From Polyangiaceae bacterium (GTDB lineage: Bacteria > Myxococcota_A > Polyangia > Polyangiales > Polyangiaceae), in the NCBI GenBank assembly GCA_035545855.1, contig DASZXK010000167.1, forward strand, positions 1 to 26,193: a stretch of DNA of 26,193 nucleotides. The letters are read 5' to 3'. The notes under the pieces are model-generated. The model had not been told where the DNA came from. It ran no database searches and saw nothing but the letters and a program-made list of their open reading frames with translations. Positions 5,925 through 15,400 of the stretch are shown here, one piece after another. The number at the start of each line of letters is the position of its first letter. Position 1 is the stretch's first letter. A program made the translations under genes and the position numbers.

Positions 5925-6703
5925 AGATCGCATTGCACGGCGCCACGGGGCGCATGGGACTCGCCATTGCTCGTCTCGCGCACGCGGCAGGGGACACCAT
6001 CGTCGGCGCCGCCGCGGCCCCGAACGACCCCGGGCAGGGCAAGGACCTCGGCGAGCTCGCCGGCCTCGGGAGCATCGGCGTCGCGGTGACGGCCGACACG
6101 GCCTCCGCGCTCCTCGGCGCCGACGTCGTCATCGATTTCTCGAACGCCTCCGCCGTCCGCACCCTGCTCGCGCTCGCGAAGCGGGCCAAGGTGCCCGTCG
6201 TGGTCGGCACGACGAACATCGACGACGCGACGCGGGCCGCTCTGGAGGACACGGCGGCGGTCGTTCCGGTCCTGTTCGCGCCGAACATGAGCCTCGGCGT
6301 CCAGGTCCTGGCGGAGCTGGTCGAGACGGCCGCCAGGAGACTCGCGGACTTCGACGCCGAGATCGTGGAGATCCATCACCGGAAGAAGGTGGATTCGCCG
6401 AGCGGCACCGCGAAACGGCTCGCGGAGGCCGTCCGCGCGGCGCGTCCGAATTCCCGTGAGATCCATACTCGCGCGGGCGACGTCGGGGCCCGGACGGACG
6501 ACGAAATCGCCGTGTTCGGCGTCCGCGGCGGTGACGTCGTCGGCGACCACACGGTGTACCTCTTCGGCGCCGGAGAGCGCATCGAGCTCACCCATCGCGC
6601 GTCGAACCGGGACCTCTTCGCCCACGGCGCGCTCCGCGCAGCGCGCTACGTCGTCGGCAAGAAGCCCGGTCGCTACACGATCAAAGACGTGCTCGCCGAG
6701 TGA
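5921..6703 (+). CDS. dapB: 4-hydroxy-tetrahydrodipicolinate reductase
   Basis: MKIALHGATGRMG is the N-terminal Rossmann motif of DapB. The conserved EIVEIHHRKKVDSPSGTA segment is present. ATGA overlap with dapA indicates an operon. Confidence 0.95.
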   Translation: MKIALHGATGRMGLAIARLAHAAGDTIVGAAAAPNDPGQGKDLGELAGLGSIGVAVTADTASALLGADVVIDFSNASAVRTLLALAKRAKVPVVVGTTNIDDATRAALEDTAAVVPVLFAPNMSLGVQVLAELVETAARRLADFDAEIVEIHHRKKVDSPSGTAKRLAEAVRAARPNSREIHTRAGDVGARTDDEIAVFGVRGGDVVGDHTVYLFGAGERIELTHRASNRDLFAHGALRAARYVVGKKPGRYTIKDVLAE

Positions 6704-6770: not shown

Positions 6771-6990
6771 GGGGACGTCGCCGATCGGATAGTTTGTATA
6801 CAAACTGTCCGGCGCGGAGAGAGTCCGGCGCGGAGAGAGTCCGGGGGGAGCAGCGAGGGGGCGTCGCGATCGGATGGTTTGTATACAAACTGTCCGGCGC
6901 GGAGAGAGTCCGCGGGAGCAGAGAGTTGGGGCGTCGCGTTCGGATGGCTTGCGTGCAAGCTGTCCGGGGCGGAGAGAGCGAGGGAGCACA
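6771..6990. repeat. Three tandem direct repeats (units about 86, 71 and 65 bp) in the dapB/lgt convergent intergenic region. Two copies carry the perfect 16-bp palindrome AGTTTGTATACAAACT. The third is degenerate (GCTTGCGTGCAAGC).
   Basis: Direct reading gives unit 1 at 6771-6856 (with an internal 16-bp duplication of GGCGCGGAGAGAGTCC), unit 2 at 6857-6927 and unit 3 at 6928-~6990. The shared core is GGGG(A/G)CGTCGC(C)GATCGGAT(A/G)GTTTGTATACAAACTGTCCGGCGCGGAGAGAGTCCG. Palindromes sit at 6790-6805 and 6878-6893. Confidence 0.85.
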
Positions 6991-7040: not shown

Positions 7041-8006
7041 TCAGTGGCCGAACTCTTCGTCGACGTCTTTGTCGCGCTTCGGGGCGTCCGCGGAGCCCTC
7101 GGTGGACTCTTCCGCGCTCGCCTTCTCTTCCGTCTCGGCTTCGGTTGCGGCGGCTTCGTCGTCTGCGTCCGTGTACCAGTGCGCGGGCACCTTCTTCTTC
7201 AGGCTCACGTAGAGGCCGATGTAGCCCGCTGCCGCGGGGATGATGGAATAGATCTGGCCCTCCGTGAGGGGGAGCCCGACGGCCCAGGCCTGATATTCCT
7301 TCACGTATTCGACGAGGAAACGCCCGGTGAAGTAGATGGCGAAGAAGAGCGAGATCATCGCTCCTCGCGGCCGCTTCTCCTCGCCGAGTTTCTTGTCGAA
7401 CAGGTAGAGGGAGAGGAGCACGAGGAGCCCGAGCGCCACTTCGTAGAGCTGGCTCGGGTGCCGGTAGACGATCTGCCCGCGGTCTTCGGGGTTTCGCGGG
7501 AAATAGACGCCCCAGGTCTGATCCGTCTTCCGGCCGACGATCTCCGAGTTGAACCAGTTGCCGATGCGGATCAGCGTGGACCCGAGCCCCGCCGAATACG
7601 AGAAGCGGTCGCACCCCTCGATGAAGGACTGCCGTTTGTGGCGCGTGAACAGCCACATCGCGGCGAGCAGCCCGACGGTGCCGCCATGGCTCGCGAGGCC
7701 GCCTTTGTGGATCATGAAGATGAACCACGGGTCCTCCAGGAAGTGCTTCCACTCGTAGAGGAAGACGTGGCCCACGCGCGAGCCGACGAGCGTGCCGATG
7801 ACTCCGTAGACGACGAAGTCGCTGCCGTCCTCCTCGGAGCCTCCCGCGCGCCGGATCTGCCAGTCGAGGAGCTTGTAGCCCCCGAGGAAGACCCCCACGT
7901 AGAGGAGGCTGTAGTAGCGGATCCCGTCACCCGGGAGCGGCAGCCACTTCGGGTAGTAGAGGAGGATGGGGTCGATGTCCCAGGTGAACTTGGGAAGCCA
8001 GTGCAT
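7041..8006 (-). CDS. lgt: Prolipoprotein diacylglyceryl transferase
   Basis: The Lgt signature GGLASHGG (G-x-x-H-G-G) is present, with multiple TM segments. The C-terminus is an acidic tail (DADDEAAATEAETEEKASAEESTEGSAD). Confidence 0.9.
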   Translation of the reverse strand: MHWLPKFTWDIDPILLYYPKWLPLPGDGIRYYSLLYVGVFLGGYKLLDWQIRRAGGSEEDGSDFVVYGVIGTLVGSRVGHVFLYEWKHFLEDPWFIFMIHKGGLASHGGTVGLLAAMWLFTRHKRQSFIEGCDRFSYSAGLGSTLIRIGNWFNSEIVGRKTDQTWGVYFPRNPEDRGQIVYRHPSQLYEVALGLLVLLSLYLFDKKLGEEKRPRGAMISLFFAIYFTGRFLVEYVKEYQAWAVGLPLTEGQIYSIIPAAAGYIGLYVSLKKKVPAHWYTDADDEAAATEAETEEKASAEESTEGSADAPKRDKDVDEEFGH

Positions 8007-8140: not shown

Positions 8141-10465
8141 TCACGGGGAAGCGGGAGGCGTTCCCGTCTGTTCCCGCGTGAACGCGGACTTTCCCGTCAG
8201 GTACTGGAGCAGCGCGAGGGACATGAGGGGGTTCTGATCGGCGCCGCCGCCACCCCCGCCTCCGACGTACACGTCGGGGATGAGCTTCAGGTGGCTCGCG
8301 GCGATCTTCTCCACCACCTGGATCTGGCCGAAGACGTCGTTCCCCATGGCGTTCACCTGGAGCTTGTAGCTCTCGGCCGTGCTCTTGCCCTGCTCCATGA
8401 TGACACGGGCCTCGGCGAGACCCTTCTTCTCGATGGCCTCCGCGTCCGCGATCGCGTTGACGCGCGTGGCCTCGGCCGTCGCGCCGGCGGCGAGCTTCGT
8501 GGCCTTGGACGAGCCCTCCGCGCGGATCTCGTTCGCGCGCGCGTCGCCGGTCGATTTCTCGATCTCCGCGTTCGCGAGGTTCTTGGCGATTTCCACGCCT
8601 CGCTCGGACTCCACGACCTTCGGCTGCATGTTCGCCTGCGCCTTCGCGTTCTCGAGGAGCTTCCGCTCCTCCTGCGCCTGCTTCTGCGTCGCGAACGTCA
8701 TGCGCTCCTGCTCGGCGATCTGACGATCCGTCACCGTGCGCGTGAGCTCCGGCGGGAGCACGACGTCGGCGATCATCGTGTCCTTGCTCTCGATGTGGTG
8801 AATGCGGAGGACCGCCTGGATGTGCTCCTTCGCCCGGCTCTGGAGCTCCGCTCGCTTCGTGTAGAGGTCGAGCGCCTTCACGGACTGGGCGGCGTTCCGG
8901 AAGTGCGACGAGATCGCCGGTTCGAGGACCTGGGAGATCAGGTTGTCGACCGACCCCAGGTTCGCCACGACCTTCGGCGCGTCCGCCATCGCGATGTGGA
9001 TGATGACGGACACGTCCATGCTGACGTTGAAGGCGTCCGCGGTGCGGAGGGTGATCGTCTTCAGGTTCGAATCCAGCTTGTGCGCGCTGGACTCGTTGTC
9101 CGCCCAGTTCAGGAGAATCTGGGTCGTGAGAACCTTGTCTACCTTGCACACCTTGGTGTTGATGGGGTGCTTGCCGGGGCCGAGCGGTTCGGCCCAGATG
9201 CCGCGCTTGCCGTTCCGGACGATCTTCGCGTTCACGTCCGCGGACGTGGTGTCCTCCCCCTCCTCGCCGACGAAGCTCGTCACCACGGCGCACTCGCCGA
9301 TCTTCACCTCCACCATGGGGACCTGGTCGATGGACGCGAACCACGGGTTGATCGCGTAGTTGCCCGAGCGGAGCACCGGGATCTGCAGGCCCTTCTGCCC
9401 GCCCGCGGCGAGGAACGCCGCCGGGTTCTGGAAGTTGTTGTGGATCTCGAGCGAGATCTCGTCCGCGGCGATCTTGGCCGCGTCGCTGATCGGCCGGCCC
9501 TCGAGCACCGTGACGATGCCGACGGAGTCCGCCCCGATGTGCGTCCACGGGACGACCGCGCTGATCACGAAGAGAGACGTGTTGATGCGGTACGTGCCCG
9601 GCATCAAGACGTCGAGCTGGTGTCCCTTCTGCCCCCCGTTCCGGAGGAACCCGTTCCCGTCCTCGAAGTTCGAGTGGCCCTCGATCTTCCGACCGAGGAG
9701 GTTCCCTTCCGCGATGCGCGCCCCGTCCATCGCCGTCACGAGGCCGACGTGGCCGTTCGGGATGACCGTCTGCTCGCGCTTGTCGACCCGGAAGAGCGCC
9801 GTGTTGATGCGATAGCTCCCGGGCGGGAGCACCTTCACCTGCGGTCCCTTCTGCCCGCCGTTGTGGAGGAACGCGTCCGCGTCCTGATAGGCGTCGCACT
9901 CGACGGGGTCCGCGAAGATGCGTCCGACGGGGCACGGCTGTCCCGCGACGGCTTCCACGACGCCGATCTCCGTCTCGTCGATGAGGACGGCGTTCGTGAT
10001 CTCCGTCGCGAAGAGCTCCGGATTGATCTGGTACTCGCCCGGCGGCAGGATCGCGAGCTGCGGACCCTTCTCGCCGCCGTTCTTCAGGAACGCCTCGCCG
10101 TCCTGGAAGAGGTTGCACGGCACCGTCTTCGCGAAGAACTGCCCGGCGGGCATCGGCATGCCGGTGATGGCCCTGACGATTCCGATCTGGTTCGTCCCGA
10201 TGGAGATGAACTTGTGCTTGCTCACCTTGTAGATGAACGGAATGAGGAAATGCACGCCGGGTCCGAGCGTCCGCGCCTGGACGCCCACCTCGTGACGGAG
10301 CGCGACGGTCCTGCCGTCCGCCATCTGGGCGCCGAACCAGCGCCGCTCGAGCGTGATGAACTGGTCGCCGCGCGCGATCGCGATGCTCGAGAACAGGAAG
10401 ACCAGCCCGCAGAGCCCGCCGAGCACGATGGCCACGTTTTCCAGCGTGAGCATTCCCTCCAACAT
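8141..10465 (-). CDS. Flotillin/SPFH (band 7) family membrane protein with a reiterated N-terminal module
   Basis: N-terminal TM (VAIVLGGLCGLVFLFSSIAIA). SPFH beta segment TLGPGVHFLIPFIYKV. C-terminal SPFH helix plus a long Glu/Ala/Lys-rich coiled-coil flotillin region and a GGGGGGG tail. ATG at 10465 is preceded by GGAGGAATC. Between the first SPFH strands and the helical half lie 4-5 repeats of about 75 aa. Confidence 0.85.
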   Translation of the reverse strand: MLEGMLTLENVAIVLGGLCGLVFLFSSIAIARGDQFITLERRWFGAQMADGRTVALRHEVGVQARTLGPGVHFLIPFIYKVSKHKFISIGTNQIGIVRAITGMPMPAGQFFAKTVPCNLFQDGEAFLKNGGEKGPQLAILPPGEYQINPELFATEITNAVLIDETEIGVVEAVAGQPCPVGRIFADPVECDAYQDADAFLHNGGQKGPQVKVLPPGSYRINTALFRVDKREQTVIPNGHVGLVTAMDGARIAEGNLLGRKIEGHSNFEDGNGFLRNGGQKGHQLDVLMPGTYRINTSLFVISAVVPWTHIGADSVGIVTVLEGRPISDAAKIAADEISLEIHNNFQNPAAFLAAGGQKGLQIPVLRSGNYAINPWFASIDQVPMVEVKIGECAVVTSFVGEEGEDTTSADVNAKIVRNGKRGIWAEPLGPGKHPINTKVCKVDKVLTTQILLNWADNESSAHKLDSNLKTITLRTADAFNVSMDVSVIIHIAMADAPKVVANLGSVDNLISQVLEPAISSHFRNAAQSVKALDLYTKRAELQSRAKEHIQAVLRIHHIESKDTMIADVVLPPELTRTVTDRQIAEQERMTFATQKQAQEERKLLENAKAQANMQPKVVESERGVEIAKNLANAEIEKSTGDARANEIRAEGSSKATKLAAGATAEATRVNAIADAEAIEKKGLAEARVIMEQGKSTAESYKLQVNAMGNDVFGQIQVVEKIAASHLKLIPDVYVGGGGGGGADQNPLMSLALLQYLTGKSAFTREQTGTPPASP

Positions 10466-10579
10466 GATTCCTCCGAGTAAAAGGGACGGACGCGCGCCAA
10501 GGACGAGGGCACGCGAGAACCGAGGAGCGTCCGTCACCCCCGGGCGGGGTTCAAGAGGGTTTCCGTGGAACGGGACGTT

Positions 10580-11212
10580 TCAAGGGACGAGCGCCGAAAG
10601 GATCGGAGCGGGATCCTTTCCGAGCCCGTCGCTTCGCACCAGGACGCGCCCCTGGGCGTCCAGGAGGACGATCGCCGTCGAGTGGTAGAATTCGCCGTTG
10701 TCGAGCTTCCTGTAGCGGATGCCGAGCACGGCGGCGAGCTGTCGCGCGTCGTCTTCGGCGGCGCTCGCGAACGTCCATCGCGAAGGGTCGAGCGAGCGGC
10801 GCGCCATGAGCCGCGTGAGCACCTCGGGTGTGTCCCTCGCGGCGTCGAAGCTCACCATCAAGATCCTGAGGTTCTCGCGCTCGGGCTCCGGGACCAGGCG
10901 ATCGATCTTCTCCAGGTCGCTCGTGAGCATCGGGCACACGTTCGGGCAGCCCGCGTAGAACATGGAGATCAACACGGGGTGGCCACGGAACTCGTCGAGC
11001 GGCTGCCGTTTCCCGTGCTCGTCCGAGATCTGGATCTGGAGGTCGTAGACGGAGACGCCGTTCGCCGCGTCCTCCGCCGGAGGCCGTACCGGCGGCGTCG
11101 GGGCGGCGCTCGGGGACGGAGCTTCGGTCGCGGCGTCCGTCGAGGGGGCTCGTCCGCAGGCGACGAGGCCGGAGAGCAGGGCGGCGAGGGTAGCGGTACG
11201 GAACGGGTTCAC
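10580..11212 (-). CDS. SCO1/SenC-family thioredoxin-like copper chaperone, lipoprotein
   Basis: CxxxC motif FYAGCPNVCP with a downstream conserved His (YHSTAIV). Signal peptide plus lipobox LSGLVAC. The GTG start at 11212 overlaps the stop of the upstream gene (GTGA). Confidence 0.85.
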   Translation of the reverse strand: MNPFRTATLAALLSGLVACGRAPSTDAATEAPSPSAAPTPPVRPPAEDAANGVSVYDLQIQISDEHGKRQPLDEFRGHPVLISMFYAGCPNVCPMLTSDLEKIDRLVPEPERENLRILMVSFDAARDTPEVLTRLMARRSLDPSRWTFASAAEDDARQLAAVLGIRYRKLDNGEFYHSTAIVLLDAQGRVLVRSDGLGKDPAPILSALVP

Positions 11213-12000
11213 GGTTTCCTCTCGATCTCTTTCACGCACCGGAAACCGAGCCGGGACGTCGTGTAGCGGGCTTCGAGCGAACTCCGGAATGCGATGCGCA
11301 TGAACGCCGCGTAGTCGCTGGGGTTCTGGGCGTCGGCACCGGCGCCGCCGCAGAAGCGCGTCTGGTCGACGACCCCTTTCTCGCGGGAGTCCATCGTGAC
11401 CAGGCTCGCGCCGAAATCGTAGACCCACTCCCACACGAGGCCGTGGAGGTCCCGGATGCCCCAGAAGTTCGGCTTCGAACCGCCCACGTCGGCGAGCGGC
11501 CTGGCGGACGTCGGTTCGGCGTACCAGGCGAGCACGCGTTCGGTCCACGCCGGGTCATCGGCTCCCCGCGCGGACGAGTCACTCGCCGCGGCGGCGAGCT
11601 CCCACTGCCGTTCGGTGGGAAGCTCGGCCCCGCGCGCCTTGCAGTACGCCTTCGCCGAAAACCAGCTCACGTTCGTCACGGGAGCCGCCGGACGAACGGA
11701 CGCGCCGAGGCGTTCGGCGTCTTCCCAGTGCGCGAGGTAGCCGAAATCCGCGAAGAGAGGCTTCACCCGATCGCGCCGCCACTCGGGCCGCTCGTGCACG
11801 AACGCGAGGAAGGCCTGGTTCGTGACGGGCGTGACGTCCATGTAGAACGCGGGCACCTTCACCGTGCGCTCCGTCGGCGAGGCGGGGTAGAGCGGCTCGT
11901 ACACCCCGGGGCCGACGCGCGCCATGCCCCGCGGCGCCCGCTCGCCGAGCGCGGGAGCCGCGAGGAGCACGCCGAGGAGCGCGATCCGCCAGGGGATCAA
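11209..12000 (-). CDS. nirV: NirV-like protein of the formylglycine-generating-enzyme (FGE)-sulfatase family
   Basis: FGE/SUMF1-type motifs: [28 protein letters not shown], and [22 protein letters not shown]-terminal signal-like [15 protein letters not shown]. Lies immediately downstream of nirK, as in known nirK-nirV operons. The start is uncertain. A candidate TTG at 12000 overlaps the nirK stop (TTGA). Confidence 0.72.
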
Positions 12001-13505
12001 ATGCCTGCTCCGCTCGAGCCCGAAGCCCGGACGCGCGCGACCTCGGCGGGCGAGACCACACCGTGGTCGTTCCCCCACGAGTTCAGGACGTACGTGATGA
12101 CGTTCGCGATGTCGTCGTCGCCGAGGTGGCTCCATGGCGGCATCGTCGAGTTGAACGTCGCTCCGTTCACGCGGATCGGACCCGTGAAGCCGTTCAGGAC
12201 CGTCGAGATGATCTTCGTCTTCTCGTTCTTCACGAGGTAGTCCGAGCCTGCGAGCGGGGGGAACGTGTTCGGCATCCCGAGGCCGGTCGCCTGGTGGCAG
12301 GTGATGCACGTCGTCGCGAACACGGATTTGCCGGCCGCGATCTGCTGCTCCTTGGTGAGAGGCCCCGAGGTGGGCTGCGTCGCGGCGAGGATCTGCGCCG
12401 GAGCCGCGGACTTTTCTGCCACGTAGGCCGAGTCCGCCTCCTTGCCCGAATAGACCACCGCGTCTTCGGGCCCGGAGACCTTGAGCGTTCCGACGGCGCC
12501 CTTGTTGAACGCGCGGAAGAGGGAATGGTCGACGATCGCGTACGAGCCGGGAACCTGGAGCTTGAACTCGGCCATCGTCGTGCCCCCGGCGGGCACCATC
12601 GTCGTCTGGACGTTCTCCTGGACCTTCGAGCCGCCCTCCGGATAGATGCGGTCGAAGATCTCCCCGATCACGTGGAAGCTCGACGTGAGGTTCGGTCCAC
12701 CGACGCCGAAGTAGATCCGCACGGTGTCGCCGACGTAGGCCTTCAGCGCCTTGTCGCCGAGGAGCGAGCCCTCGGCTCCGTTGAAGACGACGTACGTGGG
12801 TCGTTCGTCGATGCCCTTCTGCATGTCGAACGCTTGAAGACCCTTCTCGTGGTACTTCCCCGTGGTGTAGACGTCGCCCTGCATGACGTAGAACTCGCGG
12901 TCCACCGGGGGGAGGCCCTCCGGCGGCTCGACGAGGATCATCCCGTACATTCCGTTCGCCACGTGCATCGGCACCGGCGCCGTCGCGCAGTGGTAGACGA
13001 ACAGGCCCGCGTTCAGCGCGCGGAACGTGAACTTCGATTCGTGTCCCGGCGCCGTGAAGCTCGACGCCGCGCCTCCGCCGGGGCCGGTCACGGCGTGGAG
13101 GTCGATGTTGTGCGGCATCTTGCTCGAGGCGTCGTTCTGGAGGTGGAACTCGACGACGTCCCCCTGGCGCACGCGGATGAAGCTTCCGGGCACCGTGCCT
13201 CCGAACGTCCAGAAGTCGTACTGGACGCCGTCCGCCACCGGCAACGTGACCTCCTTCACGGCGAGCTTCACCACGACGTGCGCGGGCTTCGTGCGGTTCG
13301 TCGCAGGCGGCACGTTCGGAGGCGAGGTGAGCTGCGCGAGGATCGGTTCACCCGTCGGAAGACTCGTGACGTCGAGCTCCGGCTTCGCGGGCGTCGTCGC
13401 CGACGGTTTCGGGCGTACGGTATGTTCGGAAGGAGTCTCGCTGCATCCGAGCGACAGCAGAGCGAGGGAGGAGAGCGCGGTTCCAAATCGTCCGACGTGT
13501 TTCAT
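11997..13505 (-). CDS. nirK: Copper-containing nitrite reductase NirK with a fused C-terminal mono-haem cytochrome c domain
   Basis: Cupredoxin motifs PHNIDLHAV and [18 protein letters not shown] supply the type 1/type 2 Cu ligands (H, C, H, M). The C-terminal domain carries the CITCH haem-binding motif. N-terminal signal peptide with Cys (LLSLGC), so it may be a lipoprotein like Neisseria AniA. ATG at 13505 (a GTG lies immediately upstream). Confidence 0.9.
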
Positions 13506-13757
13506 CACGGGCGAGCAAAAGCACCCGCCGTGCCACGGGCGATTTTCCTGCGTCTCGCGATGGAGCCGATGTGCGCGGGGCGCAGATCCTTCGCGCTCGC
13601 GCAGCGGGGTCGTGCGCAGAACGTGGTCACGTGCCCTACGGGGCGCACCCGGTGCGCCTGCCCCGTCGATCCTCTTCGAACGCCGAGAGCAGATTCTGCG
13701 CGTTCGCACGAAATGAGATCCGTCGCCCGTCGAGCCGCGAGGACCGGATCCGGAGCT

Positions 13758-14338: not shown

Positions 14339-15400
14339 ATGCTCGCTTTTCGCCCCCGTGCCGCCGTCTTCGCCGTTCTCGGCTCCGCGCTTCTGGCCGT
14401 CGCCTGCGGAGACGACGCTTCCACCGCCGCCGCTCACCGGCCCGGCGGGTCGCTCGACGGAACGGGAAGTGGCGCTTCCGTGACGCCCGGCGCTGGCGGC
14501 TCGGTGAGCCCGGGTGCGGGCGGAGCGATCTCCACCGGCGCGGGCGGCACGACGTCCGGGAGCGGGGGTGAGACGTCCGCCGGCACGGGCGGCTGGCAGG
14601 AGCTCACGTTCACGAGCGACACGTTCACGGTAGCCGCCGGGGACGAGGTGTACCGCGCGCAGAACTTCGCGAACCCCATCGGTCACGACGTCGACATCAT
14701 CGAGAGCGAGTCGACGATGGCGAAGGGCTCGCACCACATGTTCGCGTTCCACGGCGCTAGCTACAATCAGGACGGCGCCATCGGGGACTCCACGGGCATC
14801 GAGTTCGCTCCGTACATCCACACCGCGCAGACGCCGGAGCAGCTCACTCGTTACCCCGCCGGCATCGGCCGCTACCTCCCGGGGGCAGACGGCATCCGGC
14901 TCCAGGTCCACTACATCAACACGTCGGATCAGGACATCCAGGCGTCCGTCTCGCTCCGCATCCGCTACGTGAACACCGATCAGGTGACGTTCCATGCCGC
15001 GGAGATCTTCCTGAACGACGTCGGCGTCCGCGTCCCGCCGGGCACGAGCACCGCGACGACGACCGTGAGCATGCCTTACGACGTGAAGCTCCTCGGCGCG
15101 GGGAGCCACATGCACCGGCGCGCCGTCGGCTTCGACTCCACGACGAACGACGGCCGCGAGATCTACACGACGACGGACTGGAACGAGCCCGTCGCGGCCG
15201 CGTTCGACCCGACGATCGACATCGCCCAGGGCGGCAGCATCACGTGGTCCTGCACGTACGACAACCAGACTGGCCAGACGCTCACCTTCGGCGAGTCCGC
15301 GGCCACGAACGAGATGTGCATCTTCAGCGGCGTCTACTACCCCGCGCCGAACGGCGCCGGCATCACGCGGCAGTGCCTCGGCCGCGGGTCGTGCTTCTGA
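14339..15400 (+). CDS. Secreted lipoprotein with a Gly/Ser/Thr-rich linker and a putative PHM/DBH-like type II copper monooxygenase domain
   Basis: Signal peptide plus lipobox LLAVACG. Low-complexity linker (GAGGSVSPGAGGAISTGAGGTTSGSGG). Then SHHMFAFHG (HHM, residues 132-134), H191, GSHMHRR (HxH, 257/259) and NEMCIF (M326). The spacing and local context match the CuH (HH..H) and CuM (HxH..M) sites of peptidylglycine alpha-hydroxylating monooxygenase. Confidence 0.55.
   Translation: MLAFRPRAAVFAVLGSALLAVACGDDASTAAAHRPGGSLDGTGSGASVTPGAGGSVSPGAGGAISTGAGGTTSGSGGETSAGTGGWQELTFTSDTFTVAAGDEVYRAQNFANPIGHDVDIIESESTMAKGSHHMFAFHGASYNQDGAIGDSTGIEFAPYIHTAQTPEQLTRYPAGIGRYLPGADGIRLQVHYINTSDQDIQASVSLRIRYVNTDQVTFHAAEIFLNDVGVRVPPGTSTATTTVSMPYDVKLLGAGSHMHRRAVGFDSTTNDGREIYTTTDWNEPVAAAFDPTIDIAQGGSITWSCTYDNQTGQTLTFGESAATNEMCIFSGVYYPAPNGAGITRQCLGRGSCF

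Follow-up and report, generated by a model that had tools for sequence, protein, structure and literature searches.

A membrane-anchored SPFH protein of Polyangiaceae with a reiterated N-terminal beta unit and a predicted likeness to the major vault protein

Why should an SPFH protein repeat the first beta unit of its own domain, and what would such a protein build? The question is raised by a gene on the minus strand of a 26,193-nucleotide stretch of DNA from a Polyangiaceae bacterium (assembly GCA_035545855.1, contig DASZXK010000167.1), the whole of which we call the window. An initial annotation described the product of this gene, encoded at positions 8141-10465, as a flotillin containing several copies of the SPFH N-terminal unit. 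The analysis reported here yields a different description: it is an SPFH protein, membrane-anchored, whose N-terminal beta unit is reiterated six-fold (units U0, R1 to R4, and R5), and whose parts follow the same order as in MVP, the major vault protein: beta repeats, SPFH/shoulder and long helix, with the addition of an N-terminal anchor.

An ancient repeat array in an SPFH protein

The product has 774 amino acids, the length given in the initial annotation. Its ATG, preceded by the Shine-Dalgarno sequence GGAGGA, is codon 25 of the enclosing minus-strand open reading frame (8141-10537), and this start agrees with the N-termini of 64 homologues; a GTG further upstream, yielding 798 amino acids, was dropped in favor of the ATG because the latter has the Shine-Dalgarno sequence and fits the N-termini of the family. 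An identical protein is found at NCBI under the title 'SPFH domain-containing protein [Polyangiaceae bacterium]', an identity consistent with the GC content of the window, 65-73%. In the numbering of the 774 residues, the interval 9130-10198, where repeats were first noticed, corresponds to residues 90-445. The protein starts with a transmembrane helix, followed by the six units, an SPFH alpha/beta core, a flotillin-like helix of about 150 residues and a C-terminal tail, with the following limits:

8141..10465, minus strand: whole gene, for an SPFH protein anchored in the membrane and bearing an array of MVP-like repeats (open reading frame, start, Pfam Band_7 at 100.6 bits); stop codon at 8141-8143
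10370..10465, minus strand: residues 1-32, N-terminal tail without lysine or arginine, and one transmembrane helix (AlphaFold2 helices 2-9 and 11-27; charge counts in 65 homologues)
10193..10369, minus strand: U0, residues 33-91, first beta unit, the canonical SPFH start (Band_7 positions 11-43; weak match to the repeat profile; strand pattern in the model)
9974..10192, minus strand: R1, residues 92-164 (repeat profile E 8e-35; hhalign R1-R2 E 2.6e-39; model confidence about 85-93)
9755..9973, minus strand: R2, residues 165-237 (repeat profile E 3.7e-36; model confidence about 88-94)
9530..9754, minus strand: R3, residues 238-312 (repeat profile E 2.1e-35; hhalign to R1 and R2 about 1e-25)
9308..9529, minus strand: R4, residues 313-386 (repeat profile E 3e-32; hhalign to R1-R3 6.5e-15 to 7.6e-21)
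9116..9307, minus strand: R5, residues 387-450, diverged repeat in which the main Band_7 match has its N-terminal beta part (repeat profile E 4.9e-6; hhalign R2-R5 E 6.9e-6)
8741..9115, minus strand: SPFH (Band 7) alpha/beta core, residues 451-575, equivalent to the MVP shoulder (Pfam Band_7 E 1.4e-28; column identity 0.89; hhalign to MVP)
8297..8740, minus strand: long helical and coiled-coil region, residues 576-723, flotillin-2-like, equivalent to the MVP cap helix (AlphaFold2 helices 576-611, 622-707 and 709-723; flotillin-2 profile match)
8144..8296, minus strand: C-terminal tail, residues 724-774, a glycine run and a short conserved hydrophobic helix (sequence; model helix 745-757; conservation 0.52)

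The repeat array is real and it is ancient. The four full copies announced by the initial annotation stand: pairwise local alignments of R1 to R4 score 16-43 standard deviations above shuffled controls, and profile-profile comparisons with hhalign give E-values from 6.5e-15 to 2.6e-39. A hidden Markov model (HMM) built from R1-R4 only, in 9 homologues, calls six domains in the protein. It finds R1-R4 at E 3e-32 to 4e-36, and it matches R5, the partial fifth copy of the annotation, at residues 382-450 with E 4.9e-6 and over the full length of the unit (HMM positions 3-72). For U0, the match at residues 61-90 (E 0.009) is restricted to the C-terminal hairpin half; none of 1000 shuffles scored as high as either R5 or U0, the margin being small for U0. 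Repeats at the same position are 62-84% identical across phyla, against 31-55% for neighboring repeats within one protein: the duplications are thus old and fixed, with no recent expansion.

In a high-GC genome, with its many spurious overlapping open reading frames, one may wonder whether the array reflects chance or compositional similarity, or an error of assembly or annotation. We give this idea practically no credence, refuted as it is by the shuffles, by profile E-values as low as 1e-39, by the presence of the 774-residue architecture in at least 80 independent genomes and thousands of database proteins, and by the identical copy deposited at NCBI.

The repeat is a domain without a description in the current models of Pfam and NCBIfam. 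When 36 isolated repeats were compared with Pfam at E<=10, no model matched, save three scattered single-member hits; NCBIfam has no family covering the 774-residue protein. Conserved surface motifs of the repeats are GGxKGxQ and PGxYxIN.

The origin of the repeated module can be approached through the Band_7 family of Pfam (PF01145, clan CL0433), which matches the protein at 100.6 bits, for a gathering cut-off of 23.6, with E 1.4e-28, and does so in two stretches, one in U0, the other spanning R5 and the core. Scanned separately, U0 aligns with Band_7 profile positions 11-43 (E 0.045), and the stretch from R5 onward with positions 10-165 (E 5e-25); joining U0 artificially to the core raises the score to 101.9 bits. 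Since U0 and R5 both match N-terminal positions of Band_7, an SPFH N-terminal beta unit stands at each end of the array; the main Band_7 match truly begins in R5, which is also a diverged copy of the repeat. The idea of the initial annotation, that the module derives from the SPFH N-terminal unit, is thereby supported, and the repeats are detectably related to that unit. Two further features of SPFH membership are present, an N-terminal hydrophobic helix at about residues 11-31 and the C-terminal helices at 576-723.

The name flotillin fares less well. By sequence, flotillin-2 is closest to the C-terminal half, with prohibitin next for the core, and the family profile aligns with residues 205-413 of flotillin-2 over residues 576-763 with E 5.4e-7, a value that coiled-coil composition may inflate. 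The coiled coil thus appears to resemble flotillin-2, but the assignment to the family is not supported: the FloT model of NCBIfam (NF058507) scores 11.9 bits for a cut-off of 700 (E 0.085), and the Pfam scan of the protein reports no flotillin-specific family. Proteins of the flotillin type lie in an operon with a partner of the NfeD family, of the YqiJ/YuaF type (Hinderhofer et al. 2009, PMC2636767); no NfeD-type partner gene is conserved near the gene in 82 related loci.

Predicted structure and membrane topology

The AlphaFold2 model has a predicted local distance difference test (pLDDT) of 85-94 across most of residues 10-390, and shows ordered beta modules there, rather than an ordinary SPFH fold with a disordered insert, the alternative raised with the initial annotation. 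Every repeat has the same pattern of strands together with one short helix, a pattern that U0 shares except for the helix. Compared with the PDB by Foldseek, the model has MVP for each of its 16 best matches (E 2.2e-10 to 6.8e-6), with target-normalised TM-scores of 0.55-0.62 against crystal structures of MVP R1-R7; stomatin, prohibitin, HflK/C and erlin come after, at E 0.04 or worse. The stacked units are thus predicted to share the fold of the MVP repeat domain and to form a straight rod of beta domains. Both this fold and the layout collinear with MVP were missed by the initial annotation, whose overall interpretation is partly supported.

A second line of evidence concerns the rest of the chain. 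The human MVP query was verified end to end against the 893-residue PDB chain, and an alignment of vertebrate MVPs was built. In the hhalign comparison with MVP, residues 469-697 of the family are collinear with the shoulder and cap helix (525-765), a weak match with E 0.0034 and a probability of 9.6%.

The quality of the model is uneven in an unexpected way: most of the SPFH core (8741-9307, residues 387-575) has a pLDDT below 50 despite the highest conservation and a strong Band_7 match, and the newly described repeats reach 85-94. The poor model of the core probably reflects a shallow alignment.

The family conserves the N-terminal transmembrane helix. Among 65 homologues, the tail of about 10 residues that precedes it contains a mean of 0.15 lysine or arginine, and the 15 residues past it contain 2.2. 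With positive charges past the helix and few before, the positive-inside rule places the bulk of the protein in the cytoplasm. Two accessory domains weakly back the cytoplasmic side: a zinc ribbon at the C-terminus of a relative from Microseira, which has no predicted transmembrane helix, and, in one relative, a weak peptidoglycan (PG)-binding match between two transmembrane helices upstream of U0.

Distribution, conservation and genomic neighborhood

The initial annotation called the architecture unusual; it belongs instead to a large, highly conserved, multi-phylum family. A full-length search returned 3168 database clusters; throughout the best 120, identity to the query is 64-86%, and members of full length have about 750-790 amino acids. 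In a genome scan, whose taxa are the labels of metagenome-assembled genomes (MAGs), the form with four repeats was found at 59-83% identity in Myxococcota, Acidobacteriota (Holophaga, Geothrix, Solibacteraceae) and Verrucomicrobiota, and also in Chitinophagales, Gammaproteobacteria, Oligoflexus and several Patescibacteria.

Mean column identity is highest in the SPFH core, at 0.89, followed by R5 (0.86), U0 (0.80), R1-R4 (0.75-0.80) and the helix (0.76); the C-terminal tail and the transmembrane region are at 0.52 and 0.41. Such high conservation along the chain, repeats included, is expected if most surfaces are assembly interfaces. Carriage by phages or mobile elements was considered as a general cause of the similarity across phyla and rejected: a single viral contig out of 2.9 million has the gene, and the GC content of the gene tracks that of its host flanks, from 0.39 to 0.69 across phyla. 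The similarity reflects strong constraint on a resident gene, not a travelling element, and past horizontal transfer of the gene is likely.

Some of the genome labels call for comment. In six MAGs of Patescibacteria, the candidate phyla radiation (L050, L054, L055, L057, L064 and L078), the four-repeat protein is 60-65% identical to the Polyangiaceae protein, a conservation across phyla that is unusually high for 774 residues, and the GC content of the gene has ameliorated toward that of the host; mis-binning and horizontal transfer are both possible. Three others (L009, L016 and L053) are titled Bifidobacterium breve, Klebsiella pneumoniae and Akkermansia muciniphila, titles that are implausible for lake-derived MAG contigs; their copy of the gene shares 66-81% identity with the query, and they are probably mislabelled MAGs.

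The profile of a single repeat reaches further. Searched against 1.84 billion representative proteins, it finds 1340 clusters at E<=1e-3, 748 of them at E<=1e-10, with 2 to 15 matched repeat stretches per protein. The best 150 of the 1340 clusters were re-analysed, and their common layout is one or more transmembrane helices, U0, n repeats, SPFH core and helical region. Cultured species of Geomonas, such as Geomonas subterranea/oryzae, have a relative of 829-837 amino acids with six matched stretches. The largest members are those of filamentous cyanobacteria, such as a protein of 1802 amino acids in Symploca, with about 14 repeats and a C-terminal VWA domain, and one of 1208 amino acids in Okeania. 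Among these giants of Symploca and Okeania, P0121, P0122, P0123 and P0126 have 9-15 matched stretches, and the first three, with 12-15 stretches and up to 1802 amino acids, end in a VWA domain.

The neighbors of the gene in the window are a nirK-cytochrome c fusion, an FGE-sulfatase/NirV-like gene, SCO1 and lgt, a setting that the initial annotation offered as a clue. It is found in none of the 82 related loci, and the neighbors already differ in L001 and L002; nor is any other neighbor conserved, the biggest cluster of flanking open reading frames being present in 6 of the 82. An operon logic with nirK, nirV, sco1 and lgt is rejected on this ground: the neighbors are incidental and say nothing on function. 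A role in defence was likewise rejected, PADLOC returning no match, and a consensus scan around the gene found no sigma-70 promoter and no intrinsic terminator; in this genome, co-transcription with the neighbors is possible.

Other features of the window deserve a brief record. The copper nitrite reductase cluster (10580-13709, minus strand) consists of NirK, which carries a cytochrome c domain at its C-terminus (11997-13709), the FGE-sulfatase/NirV-like gene (11209-12309) and SCO1/SenC (10580-11548); these open reading frames overlap heavily, which makes their true start codons uncertain. An open reading frame at 14339-15400, plus strand, weakly matches (E 2e-6) the C-terminal domain of copper type II ascorbate-dependent monooxygenases and, as it adjoins the cluster, may encode another copper protein. 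The lgt product (7041-8006, minus strand) has a very acidic C-terminal extension of about 50 residues (…DADDEAAATEAETEEKASAEESTEGSADAPKRDKDVDEEFGH), the Pfam LGT match ending at residue 266. In the convergent gap between dapB, which ends at 6703, and lgt, which ends at 7041, a 46-nucleotide element occurs three times (6782-6982), with start-to-start distances of 85 and 70 nucleotides. Identity is 98% between two of the copies and 76% for the third, and each has the palindrome CGGATAGTTTGTATACAAACTGTCCG at its center. Candidate identities are a REP-like element, a bidirectional terminator and an operator array.

A half-vault on the membrane?

We now turn to what the protein might build. The explanation that best accounts for the whole, and that we hold, its mechanism included, to be rather probable, is a half-vault standing on a membrane. 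By analogy with other SPFH proteins and with MVP, many copies would associate laterally into a closed dome: the helices would be its roof, the SPFH cores its shoulder, and the stacked repeats a tall wall whose height would depend on how many repeats there are (2 to about 15 in the family). Its open rim would be fastened to the membrane by the N-terminal helices. Seated on the inner membrane, on its cytoplasmic side, such a half-vault would enclose a membrane patch and a lumen far larger than that of ordinary SPFH cages, and the gene would act alone, without a conserved partner gene.

Several observations weigh against this explanation. The alignment behind the AlphaFold2 model is shallow, with 65 homologues, every one at least 64% identical; pLDDT falls below 50 at residues 397-425, 447-538 and 556-581, which leaves the SPFH core and a portion of the helix with a poor model; and two repeats modelled alone (residues 86-244) had a pLDDT of 61, a low confidence for which the model was discarded. 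The link to the repeats of MVP is structural and architectural, and is not demonstrable by sequence: the repeat profile against the vertebrate MVP alignment gives a non-significant E of 0.22 and finds no MVP among PDB sequences. The Pfam Vault (PF01505, PF17794-6) and MVP_shoulder (PF11978) families, matched by all vertebrate MVPs, are found neither in the protein at E<=1, nor in the 36 isolated repeats at E<=10, nor in 14 diverse homologues at E<=0.01 to 1. The likeness may thus be a convergence of a simple beta fold. Moreover, cage formation is extrapolated from relatives, and the putative cytoplasmic topology is drawn from the positive-inside rule together with weak matches to accessory domains.

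It was suggested in the initial annotation that repeats could bind multiple clients. An ordinary cage or microdomain of the flotillin type, from which the repeats hang as independent binding modules instead of forming a wall, would agree with the flotillin-like C-terminal half and with the conserved surface motifs; each repeat position is also conserved individually across phyla, as if positions were not interchangeable. We nevertheless find this arrangement unlikely, since repeats placed in the chain after the membrane anchor and before the SPFH core must hold the core off the membrane, and since the gene has no conserved partners. There is also the possibility that the protein faces the other way, N-in and C-out like HflK/C, its rod of repeats reaching into the periplasm or beyond the cell, where it would serve as spacer or adhesin-like stalk. 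Repeat number would then tune the length at which the SPFH and coiled-coil parts, or VWA in the long forms, are presented to the wall or outer membrane. Repeat number is indeed highly variable, as in surface proteins, several long homologues have C-terminal VWA domains, past the hydrophobic helix lies an A-x-A-like motif (AIA|RG), and weak matches resemble TolA and CshA adhesin repeats. However, the CshA matches include no individually significant stretch, and the positive charges typical of a signal peptide or an N-in anchor are missing from the N-terminal tail and come past the helix. The zinc ribbon at the C-terminus of one homologue and the PG-binding-like segment between two transmembrane helices before the repeats in another point weakly to repeats in the cytoplasm, and the best structural matches are cytoplasmic cage proteins. 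An envelope-spanning stalk thus seems improbable to us.

A broader and more speculative proposal can be made, which we regard as possible but doubtful: the family would be a membrane-bound prokaryotic counterpart of the vault, perhaps resembling its ancestor, in which half-vaults anchored in the inner membrane have a height set by repeat number, and MVP-type repeats would have arisen from the reiterated SPFH N-terminal beta unit. Should this be true, a simple path would link SPFH membrane cages to free vaults: the anchor was lost, then two halves were paired. Vaults are among the largest eukaryotic particles, and their function and origin are unsettled; a widespread and conserved bacterial family with an anchor and an MVP-like repeat wall would be a concrete intermediate that may bear on that origin, and its value is greater because the descent of its repeats from the SPFH N-terminal unit remains traceable. 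The family lends itself to experiment as well, through the cultured Geomonas species and their six-repeat relative, and its natural range of 2 to about 15 repeats is a built-in test of repeat number against cage height.

The proposal meets existing work at several points. SPFH proteins and MVP both form half-cages, and a 2026 study observes that MVP has MVP domains where canonical SPFH proteins have a membrane motif; the same work treats MVP as an aberrant SPFH protein and notes that some vaults are seen on membranes (PMC13100048). A few bacterial homologues of MVP, some with a Band 7-like shoulder, are known from BLAST searches (Daly et al. 2013, PMC3762200; Sokolskyi 2019, bioRxiv 10.1101/872010). 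The bacterial proteins most similar to eukaryotic MVP were reported in oscillatorian cyanobacteria (Lyngbya/Moorea, Oscillatoria, Microcoleus; PMC3762200), and Asgard MVPs with five repeats in 2026 (PMC12962969). Repeat arrays go unmentioned in a 2009 survey of prokaryotic SPFH families. Our literature search, of incomplete coverage, found no account of an anchored family with a variable number of repeats; some of the bacterial MVP-like proteins of Daly et al. (H8MNI3, A6FXM1, A1ZGE7, H6L4P8, I4AHY9 and the Herpetosiphon 'band 7' protein A9AUD4) may belong to it.

How does the protein compare with known systems? With HflK/C, prohibitin, stomatin, erlin and QmcA, it shares the SPFH core, the N-terminal anchor and a ring or dome of many copies expected to form over a membrane patch; each of these has one N-terminal beta unit, against six here, and HflK/C is periplasm-facing and acts together with FtsH, the present gene having no linked partner of this kind. 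The likeness to flotillin, YqiK and FloT (flotillin-1/2 cage, PDB 9bq2 and 9l3g) extends from the N-terminal membrane attachment and Band_7 to the long coiled coil and a C-terminal cap segment, and relatives are labelled 'YqiK' by the Joint Genome Institute (JGI). The flotillin type differs in that some 330 additional residues of beta repeats lie here between the first SPFH beta unit and the remaining domain, in a protein below the FloT cut-off and without an NfeD-like partner gene.

With MVP the protein shares a layout: small antiparallel-beta repeats predicted to be stacked, an SPFH-like shoulder, then a helix of about 150 residues, in a highly conserved sequence whose repeat number depends on lineage. 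The repeat units of MVP have about 55 amino acids; those described here have about 73 and include a short helix. The core of the present protein is a full-scoring Band_7, and its helix and C-terminus are flotillin-like. Finally, MVP is soluble and has no transmembrane helix: its N-termini are paired at the waist of the vault, holding two half-shells together as a closed 78-mer whose partners are vPARP, TEP1 and vault RNA. In the family described here, the same end of the chain has a conserved transmembrane helix.

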